Source: a virus
Taxonomy: Duplodnaviria > Heunggongvirae > Uroviricota > Caudoviricetes
Length of the DNA: 16,401 nt
Strand: one strand, 5' to 3'
Virus record (IMG/VR): IMGVR_UViG_3300029450_000074
Shown here piece by piece: positions 1,586-11,608 of the stretch. The notes beneath the pieces are model-generated. The model saw only the letters and a program-made list of their open reading frames with translations, did no database searches and was not told where the DNA came from. Positions within the stretch are counted from its first letter, which is position 1. Each line of letters opens with the position of its first letter. The position numbers and the translations under genes were made by a program.

Positions 1586-3352
1586 ATGAACACCACACTG
1601 ACACCCGCAGATCTCGATCCCCGTCGGCAGGCCATGCTGCTGTACTTTCAGGGATACCGCGTAGCCCGCATTGCTGAAATGCTGGGCGAGAAAGTTGCAA
1701 CCGTTCACAGCTGGAAAAAACGCGACAAGTGGGGTGACTATGGGCCGCTGGATCAGATGCAGCTCACCACCGCCGCACGCTACTGCCAGCTCATTATGAA
1801 GGAGCACAAAGAAGGGAAAGATTTCAAAGAGATTGACCTGCTGGCGCGCCAGTCTGAGCGCCACGCGCGGATCGGCAAGTTTAACAATGGCGGCAACGAA
1901 TCCGACTTAAACCCTAACGTCGCCAACCGCAACAAAGGCCCACGCCGTCAGCCGGAAAAGAATGTTTTCACCGATGAGCAGATTGAGAAGCTGGAAGAAA
2001 TCTTCCATTCCTCCATGTTCAACTACCAGCGCCACTGGTGGGAAGCCGGAAAAACCAACCGCATCCGCAACCTGCTGAAGTCACGCCAGATCGGCGCGAC
2101 CTTCTATTTTGCCCGTGAAGCCCTGATTGACGCCCTGCTTACCGGACGCAACCAGATTTTCCTTTCTGCCAGTAAGGCTCAGGCCCACGTCTTTAAACAA
2201 TACATCATCGACTTCGCCAAAGAAGTCGAGGTGGAGCTAAAAGGCGATCCGATGGTGCTTCCTAATGGGGCCACGCTTTACTTCCTCGGCACCAATGCCC
2301 GCACGGCCCAGAGTTATCACGGCAACCTGTATCTGGATGAATATTTCTGGATACCGAAATTCCAGGAGCTGCGCAAAGTGGCTTCCGGGATGGCTATTCA
2401 CAAGAAATGGCGACAAACCTATTTTTCCACGCCATCCAGCCTGACCCACAGTGCTTATCCGTTCTGGTCCGGTGCGCTGTTCAACCGTGGACGCAACAAA
2501 GCTGACAAGGTGGACATCGACCTGTCCCACAGCAATCTGGCCCCCGGCCTGCTGTGCGCAGACGGGCAATACCGCCAGATAGTCACCGTGGAAGATGCGG
2601 TGCGCGGCGGCTGCAACCTGTTCGACCTTGACCAGTTGCGCATGGAGTACAGCCCGGACGAATACCAGAACCTGCTGATGTGCGAGTTTGTGGACGATCT
2701 CGCGTCCGTGTTTCCGCTCAGCGAGCTGCAGGCGTGCATGGTGGACAGCTGGGAAGTCTGGACCGACTTTCATGCACTGGCCCTTCGCCCGTTTGGCTGG
2801 CGCGAAGTATGGATCGGTTATGACCCGGCAAAAGGTACGCAGAACGGCGACAGTGCCGGATGCGTGGTGGTGGCACCGCCAGCCGTGCCGGGCGGTAAGT
2901 TTCGCATTCTTGAGCGTCACCAGTGGCGCGGGATGGACTTCCGCGCCCAGGCTGACGCCATCAAAAAACTGACCGAACAGTACAACGTGACCTATATCGG
3001 CATCGACTCAACTGGGGTCGGCCACGGGGTTTACGAGAACGTGAAAGCGTTCTTTCCTGCCGTCCGGGAGTTTGTCTACAACCCCAATGTTAAAAACGCC
3101 CTGGTACTCAAGGCCTACGACATTATCAGCCACCGCCGTCTGGAGTTTGACGCCGGACACACCGACATAGCGCAGTCATTCATGGCAATCCGTCGCGCCA
3201 CCACCGCCAGCGGCAACCGCCCGACCTATGAAGCCAGCCGCAGCGAAGAAGCCAGTCACGCCGATCTGGCCTGGGCAACAATGCACGCACTGTTTAACGA
3301 ACCGCTGCAGGGCGAGTCCGCCAATACCAGCAATATTGTGGAGATTTTTTGA
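1586..3352 (+). CDS. P: Terminase ATPase (large) subunit, P2 gpP family
   Basis: 588-aa ORF starting at ATG 1586, diverging from O and immediately followed by the portal gene with a TGATG stop/start overlap; length fits gpP (about 590 aa). Confidence 0.85.
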   Translation: MNTTLTPADLDPRRQAMLLYFQGYRVARIAEMLGEKVATVHSWKKRDKWGDYGPLDQMQLTTAARYCQLIMKEHKEGKDFKEIDLLARQSERHARIGKFNNGGNESDLNPNVANRNKGPRRQPEKNVFTDEQIEKLEEIFHSSMFNYQRHWWEAGKTNRIRNLLKSRQIGATFYFAREALIDALLTGRNQIFLSASKAQAHVFKQYIIDFAKEVEVELKGDPMVLPNGATLYFLGTNARTAQSYHGNLYLDEYFWIPKFQELRKVASGMAIHKKWRQTYFSTPSSLTHSAYPFWSGALFNRGRNKADKVDIDLSHSNLAPGLLCADGQYRQIVTVEDAVRGGCNLFDLDQLRMEYSPDEYQNLLMCEFVDDLASVFPLSELQACMVDSWEVWTDFHALALRPFGWREVWIGYDPAKGTQNGDSAGCVVVAPPAVPGGKFRILERHQWRGMDFRAQADAIKKLTEQYNVTYIGIDSTGVGHGVYENVKAFFPAVREFVYNPNVKNALVLKAYDIISHRRLEFDAGHTDIAQSFMAIRRATTASGNRPTYEASRSEEASHADLAWATMHALFNEPLQGESANTSNIVEIF

Positions 3353-4386
3353 TGGGAAAGAGTAAGAAGAACCGCGCTTCGGCGACGAAACAGATCCAGC
3401 TTAAAAGTCAAACTACAGCCGAAGCATTCAGCTTCGGCGATCCCGTTCCTGTTCTGGACCGCCGAGAACTGCTGGACTATGTGGAATGCGTACAGACAGA
3501 TCGCTGGTATGAGCCGCCAGTAAGCTTTGACGGACTGGCGCGCACCTTCCGCGCTGCCGTGCATCACAGTTCACCAATTGCGGTGAAATGCAACATACTG
3601 ACCAGTACCTACATCCCTCACCCGCTGCTCAGCCAGCAGGCTTTTTCACGTTTTGTGCAGGACTATCTGGTATTTGGTAACGCCTATCTGGAGAAACGCA
3701 CGAACCGCTTCGGTGAAGTTATCGCCCTTGAGCCTGCTCTGGCAAAATATACCCGACGCGGGTTAGACCTGGATACCTACTGGTTTGTGCAATACGGTAT
3801 GACAACCCAGCCGTATCAGTTCACGAAAGGCAGCATTTTTCATCTGATGGAACCGGATATTAATCAGGAGATCTACGGCCTGCCCGGCTATCTTTCTGCC
3901 ATCCCATCCGCTTTGCTCAACGAGTCCGCCACGCTGTTCCGCCGGAAGTATTACATTAACGGTAGTCATGCAGGCTTCATCATGTACATGACCGATGCCG
4001 CGCAGAACCAGGAGGATGTGAACAACCTCCGCAATGCGATGAAAAGCGCCAAAGGACCGGGTAACTTCCGCAACCTGTTTATGTACTCGCCTAACGGCAA
4101 AAAGGATGGGCTTCAGATCATTCCTCTGTCAGAAGTCGCGGCGAAGGATGAGTTTCTAAACATCAAGAACGTGAGCCGGGATGACATGATGGCGGCGCAT
4201 CGTGTGCCACCGCAAATGATGGGGATTATGCCTAATAATGTTGGGGGATTTGGGGATGTGGAGAAGGCCAGCCGCGTATTCGTTCGTAATGAACTTATTC
4301 CGCTTCAGAGACGCTTTGAGGAGCTTAATAAATGGCTGGATAAAAACGCGATAGGGTTCACAAATTACGAATTATCGCTAGATTAG
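3352..4386 (+). CDS. Q: Portal (capsid portal/vertex) protein, P2 gpQ family
   Basis: ATG at 3352 overlaps the P stop (TGATG); GGAG 8 nt upstream; 344 aa as expected for gpQ. The ORF track start at 3349 is a TTG. Confidence 0.85.
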   Translation: MGKSKKNRASATKQIQLKSQTTAEAFSFGDPVPVLDRRELLDYVECVQTDRWYEPPVSFDGLARTFRAAVHHSSPIAVKCNILTSTYIPHPLLSQQAFSRFVQDYLVFGNAYLEKRTNRFGEVIALEPALAKYTRRGLDLDTYWFVQYGMTTQPYQFTKGSIFHLMEPDINQEIYGLPGYLSAIPSALLNESATLFRRKYYINGSHAGFIMYMTDAAQNQEDVNNLRNAMKSAKGPGNFRNLFMYSPNGKKDGLQIIPLSEVAAKDEFLNIKNVSRDDMMAAHRVPPQMMGIMPNNVGGFGDVEKASRVFVRNELIPLQRRFEELNKWLDKNAIGFTNYELSLD

Positions 4387-4395
4387 CTTCCCAAC

Positions 4396-4427
4396 AGCCG
4401 CAGAATTGCGGCTTTTCTTTTTTTGTT
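4396..4427 (+). terminator. Rho-independent terminator after Q
   Basis: Perfect 7-bp stem AGCCGCA (4396-4402) / TGCGGCT (4407-4413) with a GAAT loop, followed by the T-run tttctttttttg. Confidence 0.6.
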
Positions 4428-4446
4428 ATCGTGATATGTTTGATAC

Positions 4447-5097
4447 ATGGACATCACACTGAATCTAAAAATGAAAAAGGATAAAGCATTAGAATTTTAC
4501 GAAAAACTTTATTTCTCAGAAATTGAGAATAAAGACAAGATACATACTCGCGCTCAAGCCGAATTCGGATTAGTTGTCATTACCGCAACTATACTCACTT
4601 ATCTCGCCAAAAACACATCTTATGAATCCCACCCAAGGCTAGCTTGCCTAGTATTTTTATGTACCGCAATTTCATTTGGCTTAGTTCTTGTATCATCAAT
4701 TCTGTTGAAACAAGTCATATGGGGAAATGAATTTAAGTATTGCCCTGCACCTAAAGCATTGCATGATTATCACATAGATCTGATTAGTTACGAAGTGAAA
4801 TATAAAAAATATTGCGATGACAATGGACTTACATACGATGAAAGTTATAACCCTGATAATAAACTTTGGGAGTTTATTCATCAAGAAATCAGAGAGTGTG
4901 CTAGCTGGAACAGTAATATCAATGAGGAACGTTCCAGTAAACTATTTGAGTCAACAAAGTATCTTGTCTGGTCATGGATTCCAATTATCGCAGCAGTAGT
5001 CATATTTCTTTTAGCTGATTTAGATGCAGCATCACCGCGGAAAAATAACGCCCCTAACTATTTGATAATACCTATTGAAAATGTCAGGAGAACTTAA
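4447..5097 (+). CDS. Hypothetical membrane protein (about 3 predicted TM helices), AT-rich accessory gene
   Basis: 216-aa ORF in visibly AT-rich DNA. Hydrophobic segments FGLVVITATILTYLA, LACLVFLCTAISFGLVLVSSILL and LVWSWIPIIAAVVIFLLADL flank a soluble Cys-containing segment of about 85 aa. No clear SD at the 4447 ATG. No family recognised. Confidence 0.5.
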   Translation: MDITLNLKMKKDKALEFYEKLYFSEIENKDKIHTRAQAEFGLVVITATILTYLAKNTSYESHPRLACLVFLCTAISFGLVLVSSILLKQVIWGNEFKYCPAPKALHDYHIDLISYEVKYKKYCDDNGLTYDESYNPDNKLWEFIHQEIRECASWNSNINEERSSKLFESTKYLVWSWIPIIAAVVIFLLADLDAASPRKNNAPNYLIIPIENVRRT

Positions 5098-5234
5098 TGA
5101 CCAAACCGTTACCGCCACCACCTCCTCGGCCTACTCCACCCGCAAGAAGGATCGTTATTGAAGATGATTCAAAAGCAAGGCAACTACGAAGAGACAGAAA
5201 GGACGATAAAAATGACCGAACACAAAAATCCTAA
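5097..5234 (+). CDS. Polyproline micro-ORF 1 (45 aa): MTKPLPPPPPRPTPPARRIVIEDDSKARQLRRDRKDDKNDRTQKS
   Basis: ATG overlaps the stop of the membrane-protein gene (TAATG at 5095-5099); AGGAG at 5086-5090, 6 nt upstream. Hand-translated; below the ORF-track length cutoff. Confidence 0.35.
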   Translation: MTKPLPPPPPRPTPPARRIVIEDDSKARQLRRDRKDDKNDRTQKS

Positions 5235-5349
5235 AAAAAATGAAGCACCACCACCACCACCACCACCTAAACCGCCAATCACTCGGTTAGTTAGAGAAAG
5301 CTATGGCAATGATCCAAAAAATAGGAAAAATAAAGATGAGCAAAAATGA
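5212..5349 (+). CDS. Polyproline micro-ORF 2 (45 aa): MTEHKNPKKNEAPPPPPPPKPPITRLVRESYGNDPKNRKNKDEQK
   Basis: Internal ATG of track ORF 5158-5349; starts 23 nt before the micro-ORF 1 stop in the +1 frame; AAGGA-like SD about 8 nt upstream; reads through an A8 run at 5233-5240. Confidence 0.35.
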   Translation: MTEHKNPKKNEAPPPPPPPKPPITRLVRESYGNDPKNRKNKDEQK

Positions 5350-5443
5350 GAAATCTAATTTACCGCCGCCGCCACCACCCAGCAAGCCGCCTACCCGCCA
5401 AGTATTCGATCACGATGATACGAAGAAGAAATCAAAAAGATAA
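5336..5443 (+). CDS. Polyproline micro-ORF 3 (35 aa): MSKNEKSNLPPPPPPSKPPTRQVFDHDDTKKKSKR
   Basis: ATG at 5336 overlaps the end of micro-ORF 2 by 14 nt, again shifted +1; AGGA about 10 nt upstream. Hand-translated. Confidence 0.3.
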   Translation: MSKNEKSNLPPPPPPSKPPTRQVFDHDDTKKKSKR

Positions 5444-5476
5444 GTAGGTTAAGAAAGTCATACAGGTTATATATTC

Positions 5477-5520
5477 GAAGCGCCTAGTAACATTCTGCTA
5501 GGCGCTTCTTATTGTATTCA
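5477..5520 (+). terminator. Strong stem-loop, probable terminator closing the membrane-protein/micro-ORF unit
   Basis: Perfect 11-bp stem GAAGCGCCTAG (5477-5487) / CTAGGCGCTTC (5498-5508), 10-nt loop, then a T-rich tract ttattgtattcatttt. Confidence 0.5.
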
Positions 5521-5595: not shown

Positions 5596-5616
5596 CTCGT
5601 ATCCCCGCCACGCCTG
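5596..5616 (-). other. cos-like cohesive-end motif (P2/186-type), candidate packaging site
   Basis: Minus strand reads GGCGTGGCGGGGATACGAGCGCGCGC. The first 13 nt match the start of the 186/P2 19-nt cohesive end as I recall it (GGCG[T/A]GGCGGGGAAAGCA...), followed by a GCGCGC block as in P2. Position between Q and the replication side, and orientation pointing toward Q, fit the P2 left end. Match is from memory. Confidence 0.35.
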
Positions 5617-5936: not shown

Positions 5937-7550
5937 CTACAATACTTTTCTCTCGATGGTATTTTTAATGGTCAACATATCTTTAGGAATACTTTTTTTC
6001 CCCTCTATACGTATGGTAAACACAAAAAGAATAACGGCTGATCTCACAATTTTCATGAGTTGTAAGAGCTGTTTCTCAAACTTTTCTTTCTCAATAAACC
6101 TCACCTCATCAAAAAATCCATAAGAATTATATAAATCAACTAACATGTCTTTCTCATGAATAACTAACAGTTTATGTTCTAAATCATTCCTCCATTCTTT
6201 AAAAAAAGCAAGCTCACCATTTTTATCATTCAAATCCATAGCAATACTAAACAAACCCAGCAATCCTTTATTATTTATTTTATTTATTTTAAGCTTTCTT
6301 TTTTCATCACTAATCCGCCAGAAGTTATGAAAGTATATATGTCCTCTATCTGGTTTTAAATCAAATAATTGACACAGAGCAACTGCTATTTTATCCAAGA
6401 TACCAAAGCAAGCTCTAAATGCAACCCTTAACTTCTCAACATTTTCATACAATATTTCTCCATTATACAATTCAGAATAACATACCTCCGAATCCTCATC
6501 AAAAAACTCACTATCAACCTTATATTCAAAAAACATTTTTCGTGCTAAGGAATACTCAGCTTTAAGTCTATTTAACACCATTTCCATTGGCACTATAAAA
6601 TCACCAAATACACCTTCCTCGGTGGTCGCAATAGTTATATTATCTTTAGATGACGCATAACAATTGCAATATAGCGAATGATCAGACAACATTAGATTAT
6701 TATCTATACAAAACCTCTGGTAGTTTGATAAAGTATCATACTCCTCCTGCGTGAGCCTTTCATCTGTACTTATATCCTCTATGCCATATACACATGATTC
6801 ACTCAATATACTTTCGTTGTGCTTTATTTTTCTTTGAAGAGTAACCTTCCATGAAGGAAAACATTTCCCTGACTTTATTGCACACTCATAACCTCGAATA
6901 ACTTCTTTAATCATTTTATATGTATATGTTGTAGATAATTCATTAAGCAATTCTAATGCCTCAGATCTGTTTACCCACGCCTGAGGAATTGAGTTATCAA
7001 TAGATATTGCTTGTTCATAATAATCCATTGATTCAGATATACGATATTGTTTTTTTAATACATTAGCTAGATTAACTATTAAATCAGGGGGCACCCATCC
7101 ATCTTCTTGTGAAAGTTTAAACGCTTTCCAGTAATTATTTTTTACATCATTCAGCTTAATGAAACTATCAATATCTGCATTGTCATTAGGATCAAAATCA
7201 AGAACTGCGCTCATTCCATTTGCCAAGTTATAGTAATATAAGGATTCTTTCATTATAGTCAGAAATTCATTTTTATTGTTTATAAAGATATTTAAGCCTT
7301 CCTCCGCTATATTTTTTACATTACTAAAACTTCCGATATCAATAAGATTTCCGGCCAAATTAGATAATATAATTATTCTATTTTCTTTGATTGTATTTAT
7401 CTCATCGATACCGTTAAGAATATCCTTTACATTTTTATAGGCAGAATCAAATGAACCTGCATTAATAAGATCATCTACGAACCCCATTTTTGAAACAACA
7501 TAGTTGATATCCNNNNNNNNNNNNNNNNNNNNNNAAGCTAATAATACCAA
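5937..7550 (-). CDS. Hypothetical 537-aa protein, AT-rich cargo gene; candidate anti-phage/abortive-infection protein with a C-terminal HEPN-like R-x4-H motif
   Basis: Long minus-strand ORF in strongly AT-rich DNA between cos and the tum/A module. C-terminal WRNDLEHKLLVIH contains R-N-D-L-E-H (codons verified at 6174-6191). No Walker A seen. N-terminus uncertain: track start is a TTG at 7550, an N-run (7513-7534) lies in the first codons, and the first ATG after it is at 7487. Confidence 0.6.
   Translation of the reverse strand: MVLLAXXXXXXXXDINYVVSKMGFVDDLINAGSFDSAYKNVKDILNGIDEINTIKENRIIILSNLAGNLIDIGSFSNVKNIAEEGLNIFINNKNEFLTIMKESLYYYNLANGMSAVLDFDPNDNADIDSFIKLNDVKNNYWKAFKLSQEDGWVPPDLIVNLANVLKKQYRISESMDYYEQAISIDNSIPQAWVNRSEALELLNELSTTYTYKMIKEVIRGYECAIKSGKCFPSWKVTLQRKIKHNESILSESCVYGIEDISTDERLTQEEYDTLSNYQRFCIDNNLMLSDHSLYCNCYASSKDNITIATTEEGVFGDFIVPMEMVLNRLKAEYSLARKMFFEYKVDSEFFDEDSEVCYSELYNGEILYENVEKLRVAFRACFGILDKIAVALCQLFDLKPDRGHIYFHNFWRISDEKRKLKINKINNKGLLGLFSIAMDLNDKNGELAFFKEWRNDLEHKLLVIHEKDMLVDLYNSYGFFDEVRFIEKEKFEKQLLQLMKIVRSAVILFVFTIRIEGKKSIPKDMLTIKNTIERKVL
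7513..7534. other. N-run (22 nt) inside the 5' end of the 537-aa cargo ORF
   Basis: Literal n characters in the sequence. Confidence 1.
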
Positions 7551-8048: not shown

Positions 8049-8240
8049 TCAGCTGATGACATCCATTGAGCGGTTGTATTCGTGGGTTCTGATTTTTGCC
8101 ATGAGTTCATCTGTCAGTTCAGNNNNNNNNNNCTGCAGGGCCAGCCCCTTCTCTTCATCACTACACTCACTAGCCGCTACAAGCTTAAGAAAAAAATCAA
8201 TGCGCTGGAGCTTCAAAGACTCCAAAAAATAGTCCTGCAT
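8049..8240 (-). CDS. Small ORF preceding the DinI-like gene (possible N-terminal part of a Tum-like protein); interrupted by N-run 8123-8132
   Basis: ATG at 8238-8240 with a strong AGGAGG SD; sits about 45 nt downstream of a LexA box. Combined length with the DinI-like ORF is about 145 aa; 186 Tum is about 146 aa (from memory). Confidence 0.4.
   Translation of the reverse strand: MQDYFLESLKLQRIDFFLKLVAASECSDEEKGLALQXXXXELTDELMAKIRTHEYNRSMDVIS
8123..8132. other. N-run (10 nt) inside the tum-like small ORF
   Basis: Literal n characters in the sequence. Confidence 1.
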
Positions 8241-8393: not shown

Positions 8394-10771
8394 TTAATAC
8401 AGGTTCCGCCACTTATCATCTTCCTGCAAACGCTGGTTCCGATAGAAAATACGCAGGCCTGCTCCTGACGGAATGCTGCCGCCGCGAAGGAGTAAATCGA
8501 CCTCTTTCTCGCTGCCATCAAATCCTCTGGACTTCAGTTCATAGACGAGCTGCTGTCGCTGATGATCTGTAATTCGCTGTTTGTAGTCTCTACGCCGTTT
8601 CGGTTTCACCAGGCGTAACCTTGCAGCCAGTTCCCGGCGCTCTTTTTTGTTCATATTGTGCAGGTAATCGTGCAATTCCTTGTCATCCATGCGGGTGATA
8701 TCCGTTCTGGTATCCCCATCAGCTGATTTGTCTTTCCCTTGTTGGTACAAATTTTCAGCAAGGGGACAGTTATTGCCACGAGTCCAAGGGGCGCAAGCGC
8801 CCTGATCGGCTGCCGCCTCCTGAACGTCAACGGCCTTACGAACCATTTTCCACTTCACTGCATGAGTGCAGATCTTGCCCTCTGCAATGGGTGACCAGAT
8901 GCCATAAATACGAATACCGTGATCGCCATAGGCGGTTGGCTCTTCGTTGATTTCATAAGCGGTTCTGATGAGGTGATATTTGCGGGGAACCAGTACGCCG
9001 CCCTGCTTCATGATGTAGGTGGCAAAACAACCAGCATCAGCAGCAGCCAGAATGGCATCAAGACGCGGGTTATCCAGTACCGGCGCACCTGCTTTTTTGT
9101 CACCCTGTTGCCTTGCCGCCTGACCAGCCAGCAAGCGAAGTTCACGGTAAGCCTGACGTCCCGGAATACCAAAGAAGCGGAATTGCTGAACACGATGCAG
9201 AGACGCCCAGGCATTAACGTATTCAGCGTTATCACGCAGGGATTTACCCGTTTCCTTGCTGATCTCGCCAGCCAGACCACGCCCGTCAATGTTCTTACTG
9301 ATGTATTTCGCGATGTAGCTTGTCGGCGTTCCTTTGCGCGGGTTTATCAGCTCAGATTTAAAGCGTGGACCAGTGTTATTACCCAGTTCCTCGCGGTCTT
9401 CACGGATGGCAAACTTACGCAACAATGCAGTAATGGCGCGGCGGTCTTTTTTGCGCATGAAACACAACAGGTGCCAGTGAACTGTACCGTCATGATGCGG
9501 CTCAGCCACCCGCACGCCATACCAGCGCAACTCGGCTTTGTGCATCGCCTTACGAAATGCAGCAAACATGCCGACCAGATAATCGCTGCTTTGTCTTACC
9601 GTCGCATTTGTCCAGGTTGGGTTTGGTCTGCCGTTATTGAGCGTGGAATGGAAACGTGACGGACAGGTAATGGTGTAGAAAACGGCGCAGTCACCGCGCA
9701 TTTCCGCGATAAGCTCCAGACCTTTAACACAGGCCATCATCTCATTGCGGCGGTGCGCCGGGTTGCTGCTGCTGGCGTTTACCACGTCTTCCATNNNNNN
9801 NNNNNNNNNNNNNCCTCTTCGTTCACCAGTTCATGAGAACGGAAAAACTCCAGTGACTTGCGGCGCTGCTCACGTTTATGCATCACGGCTTCATAGCTGA
9901 CATAGGGAGATGCTTTTTTGCTGACCAGGCAGACAGCACGCAACTGCTCTTCCCGCCATTCGCAACGCATCTTCCATAATTTCCGGTACCACCAGTCAGC
10001 GCACAACATACGCGCCAGCGAACCCGGAATGAGTTCATAGGGCACGGGTTTACGGCGGTTTCTTTTCCGGCGGAGTTGCTCAAACGCAGGCGGGATGACA
10101 TCCAGACGCAGGGTTTCCGCTGCCACCTTTTCCCATGTCTTGCGGATTTCTTCTGGCTTAACGTCATCGGTGACATACAAATCGCCACAAGCTGCATCAA
10201 GGCACATGCTCATATGCGCAGCTACCAGGGTGGACAGGCGTTTCACCTGATCCTGACTCATTTCAGGCAGGATCAGCAGGCCGTCCAGCCCTACATGGCT
10301 TGCCATAAAGCGAAAAGAAGTGGATAGCTGACAGTCGCGTACATGCTCCAGCCGTTCCAGACATGGCTTAATCGTCTCACGCAAATAGCGGGAATAAGCC
10401 TTTGGCCTGCCCAGGCTGCTGAAGTATTCAATACGTTGCATCAGTGGCTTGCTGATATGGGAAGGCTGGGCATTGACGTCCGCCAGAATGACCATATCTG
10501 GATTAAAACGCTGCTGCTCATGCGCCAGCTTTGCCCGACTAATGAGCTTATCCTGCTCCATTTCGCGCTGGACAGGATCACGGGATTCATTAAAGAAATA
10601 ACGCTCCCAGACCTGATCACTCAGTGCCTCGCGGCGCAGCTGTTCCTGCTCGTTATCGGCAGCGTACAGAGCGATCAGGTTTGAAAGCGCAGAAACTGAA
10701 GATTGCTCTTCTGTCTCTACGTAAGGATTGATTGCTTTTTTCTCAGCATTCCAGGAATAGCTGTAGTTCAT
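8394..10771 (-). CDS. A: Replication initiation protein, P2 gpA family (HUH rolling-circle endonuclease); reading frame interrupted at N-run 9795-9813
   Basis: Two adjacent minus-strand track ORFs (9779-10822 and 8394-9794). The downstream part carries HUH motif [10 protein letters not shown] and tandem-tyrosine motif YIAKYISK. Likely start is ATG 10771 (GGAGA SD) rather than the TTG at 10822. The two parts are in different frames across the 19-nt N-run. Confidence 0.75.
9795..9813. other. N-run (19 nt) inside replication gene A
   Basis: Literal n characters in the sequence. Confidence 1.
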
Positions 10772-10849
10772 TACGCAATCTCCAGTTCGAGCTGTGAAGG
10801 CTGCAAACCATTCGACAGCCAATCAGAAACTGAAGGTGGGCGAACAGCT

Positions 10850-11608
10850 TCAATTGCACCTTTTAAAATTGCGCAACGGTTTTTCAGAATGACAGCTTTC
10901 AGCTCCTTTTCCGTCANNNNNNNNNNNNNNNNNNNNNTCAGCCTCCTGAATAGCCCGCGTCAGCTCAGGATATTTGCTATTAAATTTGGGGACATTGCAG
11001 GCAAGATTTGTACTGTCGGCAGTCGCCAGTGGGTAATTTCCCAACACACGACCGTCAAGCATGCGCAAACCATGAACAGCTGTTTTGAAATTGTGTCGGC
11101 AATAAATTGCTTCAAAAGCGTCCTGCATACGACGATGCCAGTGCGCAGTTCTGATAGCCGCATATTCACCAGACGATCCAAAGCAGACACGAGGCCATTC
11201 ACGACATAGCTCGATAAGCCGATCGATTGACTCGTGCAGATGCCAGACGGGAGTTGCCTTCCCGTAGAACATTTTCGGAACTTCGTTTATCAGGGCATCA
11301 TTGTCACGTTCACCTCCGTCCACAACATCAGGAATGACAAAAAAAGCGACCTTAGGATGGTGGTAATAGTTCAGGAGCCATTTATAAAAATCACTCCAGT
11401 TAATTTTTAGCCCACGCACCCATGCAGAAAATGCGCCGTTATCAATGCCGACGACCTGAGCGTGCTGAATGGACGCCGCAATCTGATCTGGTCGTACATA
11501 GGAGACGAAAGCGCCAGCTCCGCTCACCGCAATACGATGAACGTCGCCAGCACTTCCCCAGACAGGCGTCCCATGGAAATGATGAATTCCGTGGTGCATT
11601 TCTTTCAC
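10850..11608 (-). CDS. Hypothetical 252-aa protein translationally coupled to the Dam methyltransferase; family unassigned
   Basis: Start (GTG 11606-11608 or ATG 11597-11599) overlaps or abuts the Dam stop (TGA 11605-11607). Motifs GIDNGAFSAW and VIPDVVDGG have a weak, unverified resemblance to TGT/DpdA-type signatures; no zinc-binding Cys cluster. N-run 10917-10937 lies near the C-terminus. Confidence 0.45.
   Translation of the reverse strand: MKEMHHGIHHFHGTPVWGSAGDVHRIAVSGAGAFVSYVRPDQIAASIQHAQVVGIDNGAFSAWVRGLKINWSDFYKWLLNYYHHPKVAFFVIPDVVDGGERDNDALINEVPKMFYGKATPVWHLHESIDRLIELCREWPRVCFGSSGEYAAIRTAHWHRRMQDAFEAIYCRHNFKTAVHGLRMLDGRVLGNYPLATADSTNLACNVPKFNSKYPELTRAIQEAXXXXXXXXDGKGAESCHSEKPLRNFKRCN
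10917..10937. other. N-run (21 nt) inside the Dam-coupled 252-aa ORF
   Basis: Literal n characters in the sequence. Confidence 1.

Follow-up and report, generated by a model that had tools for sequence, protein, structure and literature searches.

A membrane-protein gene with three polyproline micro-genes between the portal gene and cos of a P2-like prophage: a rare cargo cassette and candidate anti-phage module

The viral DNA record IMGVR_UViG_3300029450_000074 of IMG/VR, whose full stretch of 16,401 nucleotides is referred to here as the window, is a P2-like (Peduoviridae-type) prophage. Between the terminator of its portal gene, Q, and its cohesive-end site, cos, there is a cassette made up of a gene for a membrane protein and three overlapping open reading frames (ORFs) for small proline-rich proteins, designated m1, m2, and m3. 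The elements of this region, with their window coordinates, are as follows.

3349-4386, plus strand: portal gene Q (Pfam Phage_portal).
4396-4413, plus strand: terminator-like hairpin with a T-run (7-bp stem, 5 GC pairs), ending the P-Q late operon and corresponding to tQ of P2.
4414-5508: the cassette, between the portal-gene terminator and cos.
4432-4440, plus strand: extended -10 promoter-like element, TGaTATGTT, of which TG-n-TATG is invariant or nearly so in nine diverged loci.
4447-5097, plus strand: membrane-protein gene, listed at 216 amino acids (aa) but probably of 208 aa, with the ATG at 4471 as start.
5097-5234, plus strand: m1, 45 aa, MTKPLPPPPPRPTPPARRIVIEDDSK...; its start overlaps the membrane-gene stop, and an AGGAG Shine-Dalgarno (SD) sequence lies about 8 nt upstream.
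5212-5349, plus strand: m2, 45 aa, MTEHKNPKKNEAPPPPPPPKPPITRLVRESYGNDP...; 23-nt overlap with m1.
5336-5443, plus strand: m3, 35 aa, MSKNEKSNLPPPPPPSKPPTRQVFDHDDTKKKSKR; 14-nt overlap with m2.
5477-5508, plus strand: strong terminator-like hairpin (13-bp stem, 7 GC pairs) closing the four-gene cassette.
5596-5614, no strand assigned: cos core, to which P2 cosL aligns in reverse complement; it marks where the cargo slot on the Q side ends.

The distance from Q to cos is 1,209 bp in the window, against 167 bp in P2, for which the reference marks are cosL at 1-19, tQ at 160-181, and the Q stop at 187. The hairpin at 4396-4413 is directly 3′ of the portal stop (4386), at the position equivalent to that of the annotated tQ of P2, and it is kept upstream of the cassette in related loci. 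At the other end, the annotated cos of the P2-like phage Cartapus covers the same place as window positions 5596-5614. The GC content is 0.33-0.37 across the cassette versus 0.52-0.58 in the structural genes. Since P2 has almost nothing between Q and cos, the cassette is AT-rich, and few genomes carry it, it is appropriate to regard the cassette as an insertion. A sequence-only reading of this DNA had placed the membrane-protein gene in AT-rich DNA right after the Q terminator and, taking P2 to be nearly empty there, had called the roughly 1.2 kb an insertion; the hairpin, the base composition, and the P2 distance bear out both statements.

What that reading missed is that the gpA-gpQ interval had already been described as a defence hotspot. 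The interval, including cos, is an experimentally supported anti-phage hotspot in P2-like phages (PMC9122126; PMC13586616), whose known cargo includes old, tin, PARIS, retrons, and others (Rousset et al. 2022, PMC9122126). The cassette is like this cargo in that it is situated between Q and A and adjoins cos, is AT-rich and foreign in base composition, is variably present among similar prophages, and has what are probably its own promoter and terminator. It is unlike it in its position relative to cos, being on the portal side while P2 has old and tin on the A side, and in that the proteins of the window copy match no known or candidate defence model. Phage Cartapus also has cargo between Q and cos, a DUF4145 protein. 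In sibling prophages with the L001-type gene set, SieB is the last gene of the gpA-gpQ locus (supplementary file 6 of PMC9122126), a position that we read, from the gene order, as the same portal-side slot.

The cassette is rare. At megablast sensitivity it is found in six of 5,426 complete E. coli genomes, with 99.7-99.8% DNA identity between the window and the six chromosomes, while a similar portal gene occurs in 1,244 of the 5,426 (at 1,286 places). No copy was detected by blastn or tblastn in 50,697 GenBank phage records. Hence we are not dealing with a gene of structural or lysis role conserved at this position in most P2-like phages, and predicted transmembrane (TM) helices are present.

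The comparison covered 25 related enterobacterial loci, in which the membrane protein is 51-100% identical. Micro-ORFs accompany the membrane gene in 24 of the 25, that is, in every locus whose gene the scan recovered. The full set of three is usual; L006-8 have m2 fused to m3, L026 has two, and only m1 was found in the scan of L025 and L027. Wherever upstream sequence is available for these close relatives (at least 51% identity), the cassette comes directly after the portal gene or a portal remnant, and the cos core CCCCGCC[AT]CGCC follows 3′ of it in 23 of these loci, while two stop short of the expected position. After m3, the Enterobacter locus L005 has a hairpin with a T-run, equivalent to the one at 5477-5508 of the window. 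One locus (L029) combines a portal of 93% identity with a membrane protein of only 51%; such uncoupling of portal and cassette identities indicates that alleles have been exchanged between backbones. Sibling prophages (L001) differ in their cargo across cos: in E. coli WS0115A the same cassette has other genes there, which makes the cassette independent of the HEPN-TPR gene found at that place in the window. At the level of sequence, these comparisons show a self-contained, rare, and horizontally exchanged four-gene cassette, residing in a defence hotspot of a sub-lineage of P2-like prophages.

Four locus types have other cargo between the cassette and cos. In L004 (7096-9923) this is a PIN_12 gene and an HTH/M78 peptidase gene, and in L006 (7312-10155) it is a GAPS4-type PDDEXK protein with two genes of no known function; the portal-side slot can therefore hold several systems. 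In L003 (7669-8626), a TacA-like/GNAT-like pair lies beyond the cos core, on the A side. The idea that the copies in Pantoea (L002) and Enterobacter (L005) occupy other hotspots was rejected, as tblastn shows portal remnants immediately upstream. In Pantoea stewartii L002 (5139-5852) and Enterobacter pseudoroggenkampii L005 (5050-5906) the cassette stands beside truncated or frameshifted portal remnants of decayed P2-like prophages, and it seems that the cargo is kept while the phage decays.

The membrane-protein gene can be taken as real from its length: when 4414-5510 was shuffled 2,000 times with dinucleotide frequencies preserved, the longest ORF had a mean length of 63 aa and was in no case longer than 172 aa. 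Its start is another matter. The sequence-only reading used the 216-aa frame, whereas the second in-frame ATG (4471, 208 aa) is the start used in RefSeq and in most homologs and is probably the true one. The element TGaTATGTT at 4432-4440 was missed by a consensus promoter scan; from its conservation, we infer that it is the probable promoter of the cassette, and, with an extended -10 at this place, the transcript would start near 4447.

Hydrophobic segments are found at about residues 41-56, 63-88, and 172-190. From the N-terminus, the protein has a helix, the TM1-TM2 hairpin, a soluble domain made of helices, the third hydrophobic helix, and a conserved tail, DLDAASPRK...YLIIPIENVRRT. The hydrophilic loop of about 83 aa between hydrophobic helices 2 and 3 holds Cys99, Cys123, and Cys151, of which the wide family keeps Cys151 only. 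About three hydrophobic helices and a Cys-containing soluble loop had been noticed in the earlier reading, and the hydropathy profile agrees. The AlphaFold2 model of the window protein is all-helical (helices 3-56, 63-92, 102-125, and 136-189) with a mean predicted local distance difference test score (pLDDT) of 82.5, and fold searches with the models returned generic helical bundles only. By the positive-inside rule, applied to 55 homologs, the side with the N-terminal helix and the central domain has a net charge of +3.6 and the side with loop 1 and the C-tail one of -0.8. An N-in/C-out topology is thus predicted, with the N-terminal helix and the central domain in the cytoplasm and the C-tail outside.

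The three micro-ORFs share a layout: five to seven prolines, an R-x-hydrophobic-x-acidic motif, and a charged tail. They are tightly joined to the membrane gene. As the sequence-only reading had noted, the TAA stop of the latter (5095-5097) shares its last A with the ATG of m1 at 5097, forming TAATG, and such start/stop overlaps are kept across the related loci as TAATG, TGATG, or TAGTG with a GTG start. An SD-like AGGAG or AAGGA is located 6-10 nt 5′ of each micro-ORF and is also kept across related loci, whereas the membrane gene has no SD-like sequence. This arrangement fits a dangerous protein with an abundant regulator. The SD sequence of m1 (AGGAG, 5084-5088) is made by the Arg-Arg codons (AGG AGA) of the conserved ...NVRRT end of the membrane protein, so that part of the C-terminal protein conservation may reflect the ribosome-binding site of m1.

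All four genes are protein-coding. Synonymous differences are near saturation across them (pS, the synonymous proportion, is 0.45-1.08) and non-synonymous differences (pN) are far fewer, with pN/pS ratios of 0.18-0.42 for the membrane gene, 0.27-0.83 for m1, 0.37-0.92 for m2, and 0.15-0.42 for m3. Such ratios at saturated synonymous sites show that m1 to m3 and the membrane gene are real protein-coding genes under purifying selection. Annotation has largely passed the micro-genes by. RefSeq annotates the membrane gene and a 61-aa form of m2 (5164-5349) only; among about 15 billion predicted proteins searched, there is no exact copy of m1 or of m3, and m2 is annotated only in longer forms, with cluster members of 58-64 aa.

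The proline runs are long enough to be of the type that arrests translation: PPPPP in m1, PPPPPPP in m2, and PPPPPP in m3, with up to 12 consecutive prolines in homologs. Ribosomes stall at runs of at least three prolines unless elongation factor P (EF-P) acts (PMC4176338), which would tie the supply of the micro-proteins to translation capacity. The run in m2 (5245-5270) has seven prolines in the window and six in the near-identical prophage L015 (7766-7900), which suggests slippage in the CCN repeats. On the opposite strand, the CCN runs are mirrored by two poly-glycine ORFs (5184-5282 and 5287-5385, both minus), which we judged to be strand-symmetry artefacts and not genes. The stretch PRPTPPARRI of m1, which we took to resemble insect proline-rich antimicrobial peptides such as pyrrhocoricin, was considered as an antimicrobial peptide of that kind and dropped, as it is not conserved among m1 orthologs.

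The membrane protein belongs to a much wider family. A profile search of 1.84 billion cluster representatives gave 957 matches at E≤1e-3 and 271 at E≤1e-10, ranging from Enterobacterales to Campylobacterota; a scan of species-representative genomes gave a single locus. For the family no Pfam, NCBIfam, or PDB relative was found and no PADLOC assignment. The only library family that matches the window protein is phrog_36961 (E=5.5e-22, residues 9-199), whose function is unknown; it differs in that it has no annotation, and tblastn of the same 50,697 phage records found no close copy.

Lengths of 250-310 aa are common among the homologs. Sixty-four of them have tails of at least 40 aa beyond the conserved DLDxSSPRK motif; in 47 of these, a Pro-rich tract lies close to the C-terminus, usually followed, as in the micro-ORFs, by R-x-hydrophobic-x-[ED]; examples are PPPPPPQAPARPIARVFNDE, PERPSVRISLED, and PEPRDIIESE. 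Other members have the motif in separate genes: one locus (L035) has both a fused tail and a free 34-aa micro-ORF, three (L014, L030, L031) have one overlapping downstream micro-ORF, and in L036 a 58-aa Pro-rich ORF is upstream of the membrane gene. As Rosetta-stone-type evidence, the occurrence of the motif in fused, downstream, and upstream form ties the peptide functionally to the membrane protein. Comparison of family members thus shows the Pro-rich motif (the tract followed by R-x-hydrophobic-x-acidic) to be an obligate partner of this membrane-protein family. The earlier suggestion that the membrane protein acts with the micro-ORFs has in this way gained strong support from co-conservation, translational coupling, purifying selection, and gene fusions in distant homologs.

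Distant members occupy varied places. One is convergent with the portal gene of a P2-like prophage (L010), another is beside tail gene D, encoding gpD (L011), and a third is between tail genes V and S (L031), a slot that in P2 presumably holds the non-essential orf30. In Pseudomonas, a member adjoins a gene for a 1,355-aa KAP NTPase, and in a Campylobacterota metagenome-assembled genome (MAG) a member is followed by ThsB-like TIR and caspase genes. In L036 (2170-3895) and L037 (1338-3063), a distant family member with the upstream Pro-rich micro-ORF has its stop overlapping the start of an AbiH-family gene, and HepT/MNT genes and a weak Zeta-toxin-like match are just upstream; this may be a composite abortive-infection operon. 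Some distant members are found in variable regions near RT-Cas1/Cas2 or IS110.

What, then, could the membrane protein do? It most resembles SLATT-type two-TM effectors (PycTM, the 2TM effectors of CBASS, and the SLATT proteins of DRT systems), although membership of that superfamily is not established. Hydropathy and the AlphaFold2 model give a TM hairpin preceded by a helix at the N-terminus and continued by a helical region, as in those effectors; the third hydrophobic helix of the family is extra and sets it apart. Among 151 family representatives, most of the weak PADLOC matches were to membrane-effector models, namely PycTM (18), CBASS "Effector 2TM" (6), reverse transcriptase (RT)-associated SLATT (5), and CARF_2TM (1). 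These weak matches, with E values from 2.8e-6 to 1e-2, include near full-length alignments; the best is that of P0042 to PycTM (E=2.8e-6, profile positions 35-157 of 160), and the best to RTasSLATT, again by family members and not by the window protein, has the weak value of 7.3e-5. Like these effectors, the family occurs in defence neighbourhoods. The partner is where they differ most plainly: here it is a proline-rich peptide or tail, with no cyclic-nucleotide-binding domain, cyclase, SMODS, or RT. Between its two terminators the cassette holds the membrane gene and the three micro-ORFs only; no generator or sensor of a nucleotide signal (cyclase, SMODS, RT, or cyclic nucleotide monophosphate (cNMP)-binding domain) was found in the cassette or in the family, and a word-indexed protein search for family members with SLATT or cNMP domains found none.

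With these resemblances in mind, we propose, tentatively and at what we judge to be a little short of an even chance, that the membrane protein is a membrane-damaging abortive-infection effector that the Pro-rich peptides or tail restrain while sensing infection. From its own promoter, the cassette would express the 208-aa membrane protein and then the three translationally coupled proline-rich micro-proteins, up to the terminator. The membrane protein would be a SLATT/PycTM-like inner-membrane effector able to permeabilise or depolarise the membrane. It would be held inactive by the peptides, or by the fused tail, which would also be the sensor. On infection by another phage, a phage or host partner would titrate the peptides; alternatively, the peptides would run out, being EF-P-dependent to translate and probably short-lived. 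The freed effector would then fire and abort the infection, and the lysogen population would be protected. A bolder version, which we regard as a long shot, has the polyproline tract itself, in the micro-proteins or in a C-terminal tail, sensing the state of translation and being more than a linker: synthesis of the peptides would hinge on EF-P and proline-tRNA, so that perturbation of translation by a phage would cause their loss or alteration and free a SLATT-like pore; the cassette would then be the founding example of an undescribed class of defence. The broader idea of the sequence-only reading, a membrane effector or superinfection-exclusion factor, is plausible but unproven, and it rests on genomic context and the weak PycTM/2TM/SLATT similarity.

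Several observations count against the abortive-effector proposal. The window protein itself matches no PADLOC model, and no Pfam SLATT match was obtained in the 55 members scanned, even at E=10 for ten of them. An hhalign comparison of the family profile with one neighbouring DUF4231 protein was not significant (probability 0.9%). No signal-generating enzyme such as a cyclase or RT accompanies the gene, unlike in the known SLATT/PycTM systems. AlphaFold2 of a fused homolog, run to test docking, gave a core with pLDDT above 90 and left the tail disordered and undocked. The fused versions argue against a simple trigger based on the supply of a labile antitoxin. There is also a conflict of topology, in that a C-out orientation puts the fused Pro-rich tails in the periplasm and the free micro-proteins, having no signal peptide, must be cytoplasmic. 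Possible ways out are that the third hydrophobic helix is not membrane-spanning in the resting state, that the positive-inside rule misleads, or that the free and fused motifs work in different compartments.

The same topology is of interest for another explanation, non-lethal superinfection exclusion, in which the inner-membrane protein and its Pro-rich part would block genome entry as do SieA, T4 Imm, and HK97 gp15. With the C-terminus outside, the fused tails would be in the periplasm, where a rigid polyproline spacer and a strand-forming motif could contact the entry apparatus or receptor, and the protein is, like the exclusion proteins (SieB of P22 and lambda, SieA of P22, Imm, gp15), a small prophage-encoded inner-membrane protein without an enzymatic domain at a cargo slot; related prophages, moreover, list SieB at what is read as the same portal-side slot. 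The free micro-proteins, being highly charged and without signal peptides, could not reach the periplasm, and no sequence similarity of the cassette protein to the exclusion proteins was detected. When the window protein and nine homologs were scanned with Pfam, the SieB family model gave no match at E≤10, and neither did Pfam reveal other exclusion families. Together with the AbiH, TIR/caspase, and HepT neighbours and the PycTM/SLATT-type similarity, which favour abortive effectors, this leads us to consider exclusion rather unlikely. None of SieB, SieA, T4 Imm, and HK97 gp15 is known to need polyproline micro-proteins. A toxin-antitoxin (TA)-like addiction or stress module, stabilising the prophage or the cos-proximal region with no anti-phage role, would account for a compact, translationally coupled operon that pairs a membrane protein with small, probably abundant peptides, and TA genes do occur at neighbouring cargo positions (TacA-like in L003, HepT/MNT in L036). 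We think it improbable, since the common single-polypeptide forms are ill-suited to classical addiction by differential stability and family members cluster in the cargo slots of phages and in defence neighbourhoods; besides, many of the TA modules found in such places act against phages themselves.

Given that the gene follows the portal gene immediately and in the same orientation, past the end of the late P-Q operon and beside cos, and that its product has three hydrophobic helices, as class I holins do, a role in the lytic cycle of the phage itself (lysis timing, a holin/antiholin-like function, packaging, or a portal-associated function) deserves mention. Here the conserved terminator that splits the gene from Q, and its own conserved -10 element, speak against such a role, and about 99.5% of the related E. 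coli P2-like prophages, and P2, do without the cassette. A complete lysis cassette (holin, lysozyme, and LysB/LysC) is annotated elsewhere in a near-identical prophage, and the gene is not in a lysis cassette by an endolysin. The product, with 208 aa and an 83-aa soluble domain, is unlike holins, which have about 70-150 aa, and distant homologs are found outside phages; such a role is very improbable. Less credible still is a lysogenic-conversion factor aimed at a eukaryotic host, with the polyproline mimicking ligands of SH3, EVH1, or profilin in the manner of the prophage-encoded EspF/TccP. Long PPPPPP tracts are classical ligands of eukaryotic domains, and the cassette is carried by E. coli, Salmonella, and Klebsiella from humans and food. 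The peptides, however, have no secretion signal, and in every case they go with an inner-membrane protein of bacteria, to which the peptide is in some cases fused. Homologous cassettes, furthermore, come from Cedecea and Vibrio gazogenes, from Pantoea associated with plants, and from a Campylobacterota MAG and environmental metagenomes.

The remaining features of the window that bear on its setting are the following.

1586-3352, plus strand: terminase gene P.
5937-7550, minus strand: HEPN-TPR gene, 537 aa, with a TPR region and a C-terminal HEPN_LA2681 domain (Pfam E=1.9e-38), on the A side of cos.
Also in the window: DinI-like gene.
8394 onwards, minus strand: replication gene A, encoding gpA.

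The HEPN-TPR gene is very AT-rich (GC about 0.30) and received neither a PADLOC system assignment nor an NCBIfam match. It is probably a separate, single-gene defence candidate. In the sibling prophage of WS0115A, unrelated genes are found in its place. The window contains four runs of N, 72 bases in total (7513-7534, 8123-8132, 9795-9813, and 10917-10937), which give runs of X in the HEPN-TPR protein and split gpA into the ORFs 8394-9794 and 9779-10822.

Returning to the abortive-effector proposal, the alternation between fused and free forms brings to mind the fused and split TA defence modules, of which CapRel SJ46 reportedly is a fused toxin-antitoxin module whose antitoxin part senses the phage. 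The likeness is that the regulator of the cassette is either a C-terminal extension of the effector or a set of separate small proteins. There is no relationship in sequence or fold; the effector here is a membrane protein, and its partner is a disordered, Pro-rich short linear motif. That cargo is carried in the gpA-gpQ interval is known, but a module of a SLATT-like membrane protein with polyproline micro-proteins is undescribed in the libraries and literature searched; literature searches on prophage membrane proteins with polyproline or proline-rich partners, on SLATT together with proline, and on the RefSeq accession gave nothing relevant.

If the proposal is true, the cassette would be a compact new prophage-immunity module, in which a membrane effector is controlled by proline-rich proteins of only 35-45 aa, from a family of about 950 cluster representatives that are now without annotation. 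The cassette also shows that annotation misses functional micro-genes in a well-studied hotspot. The split, fused, and reordered forms provide a genetic handle on how a short linear motif gates a membrane effector, and the same arrangements allow us to ask whether polyproline translation, through its need for EF-P, serves as a sensor of infection.

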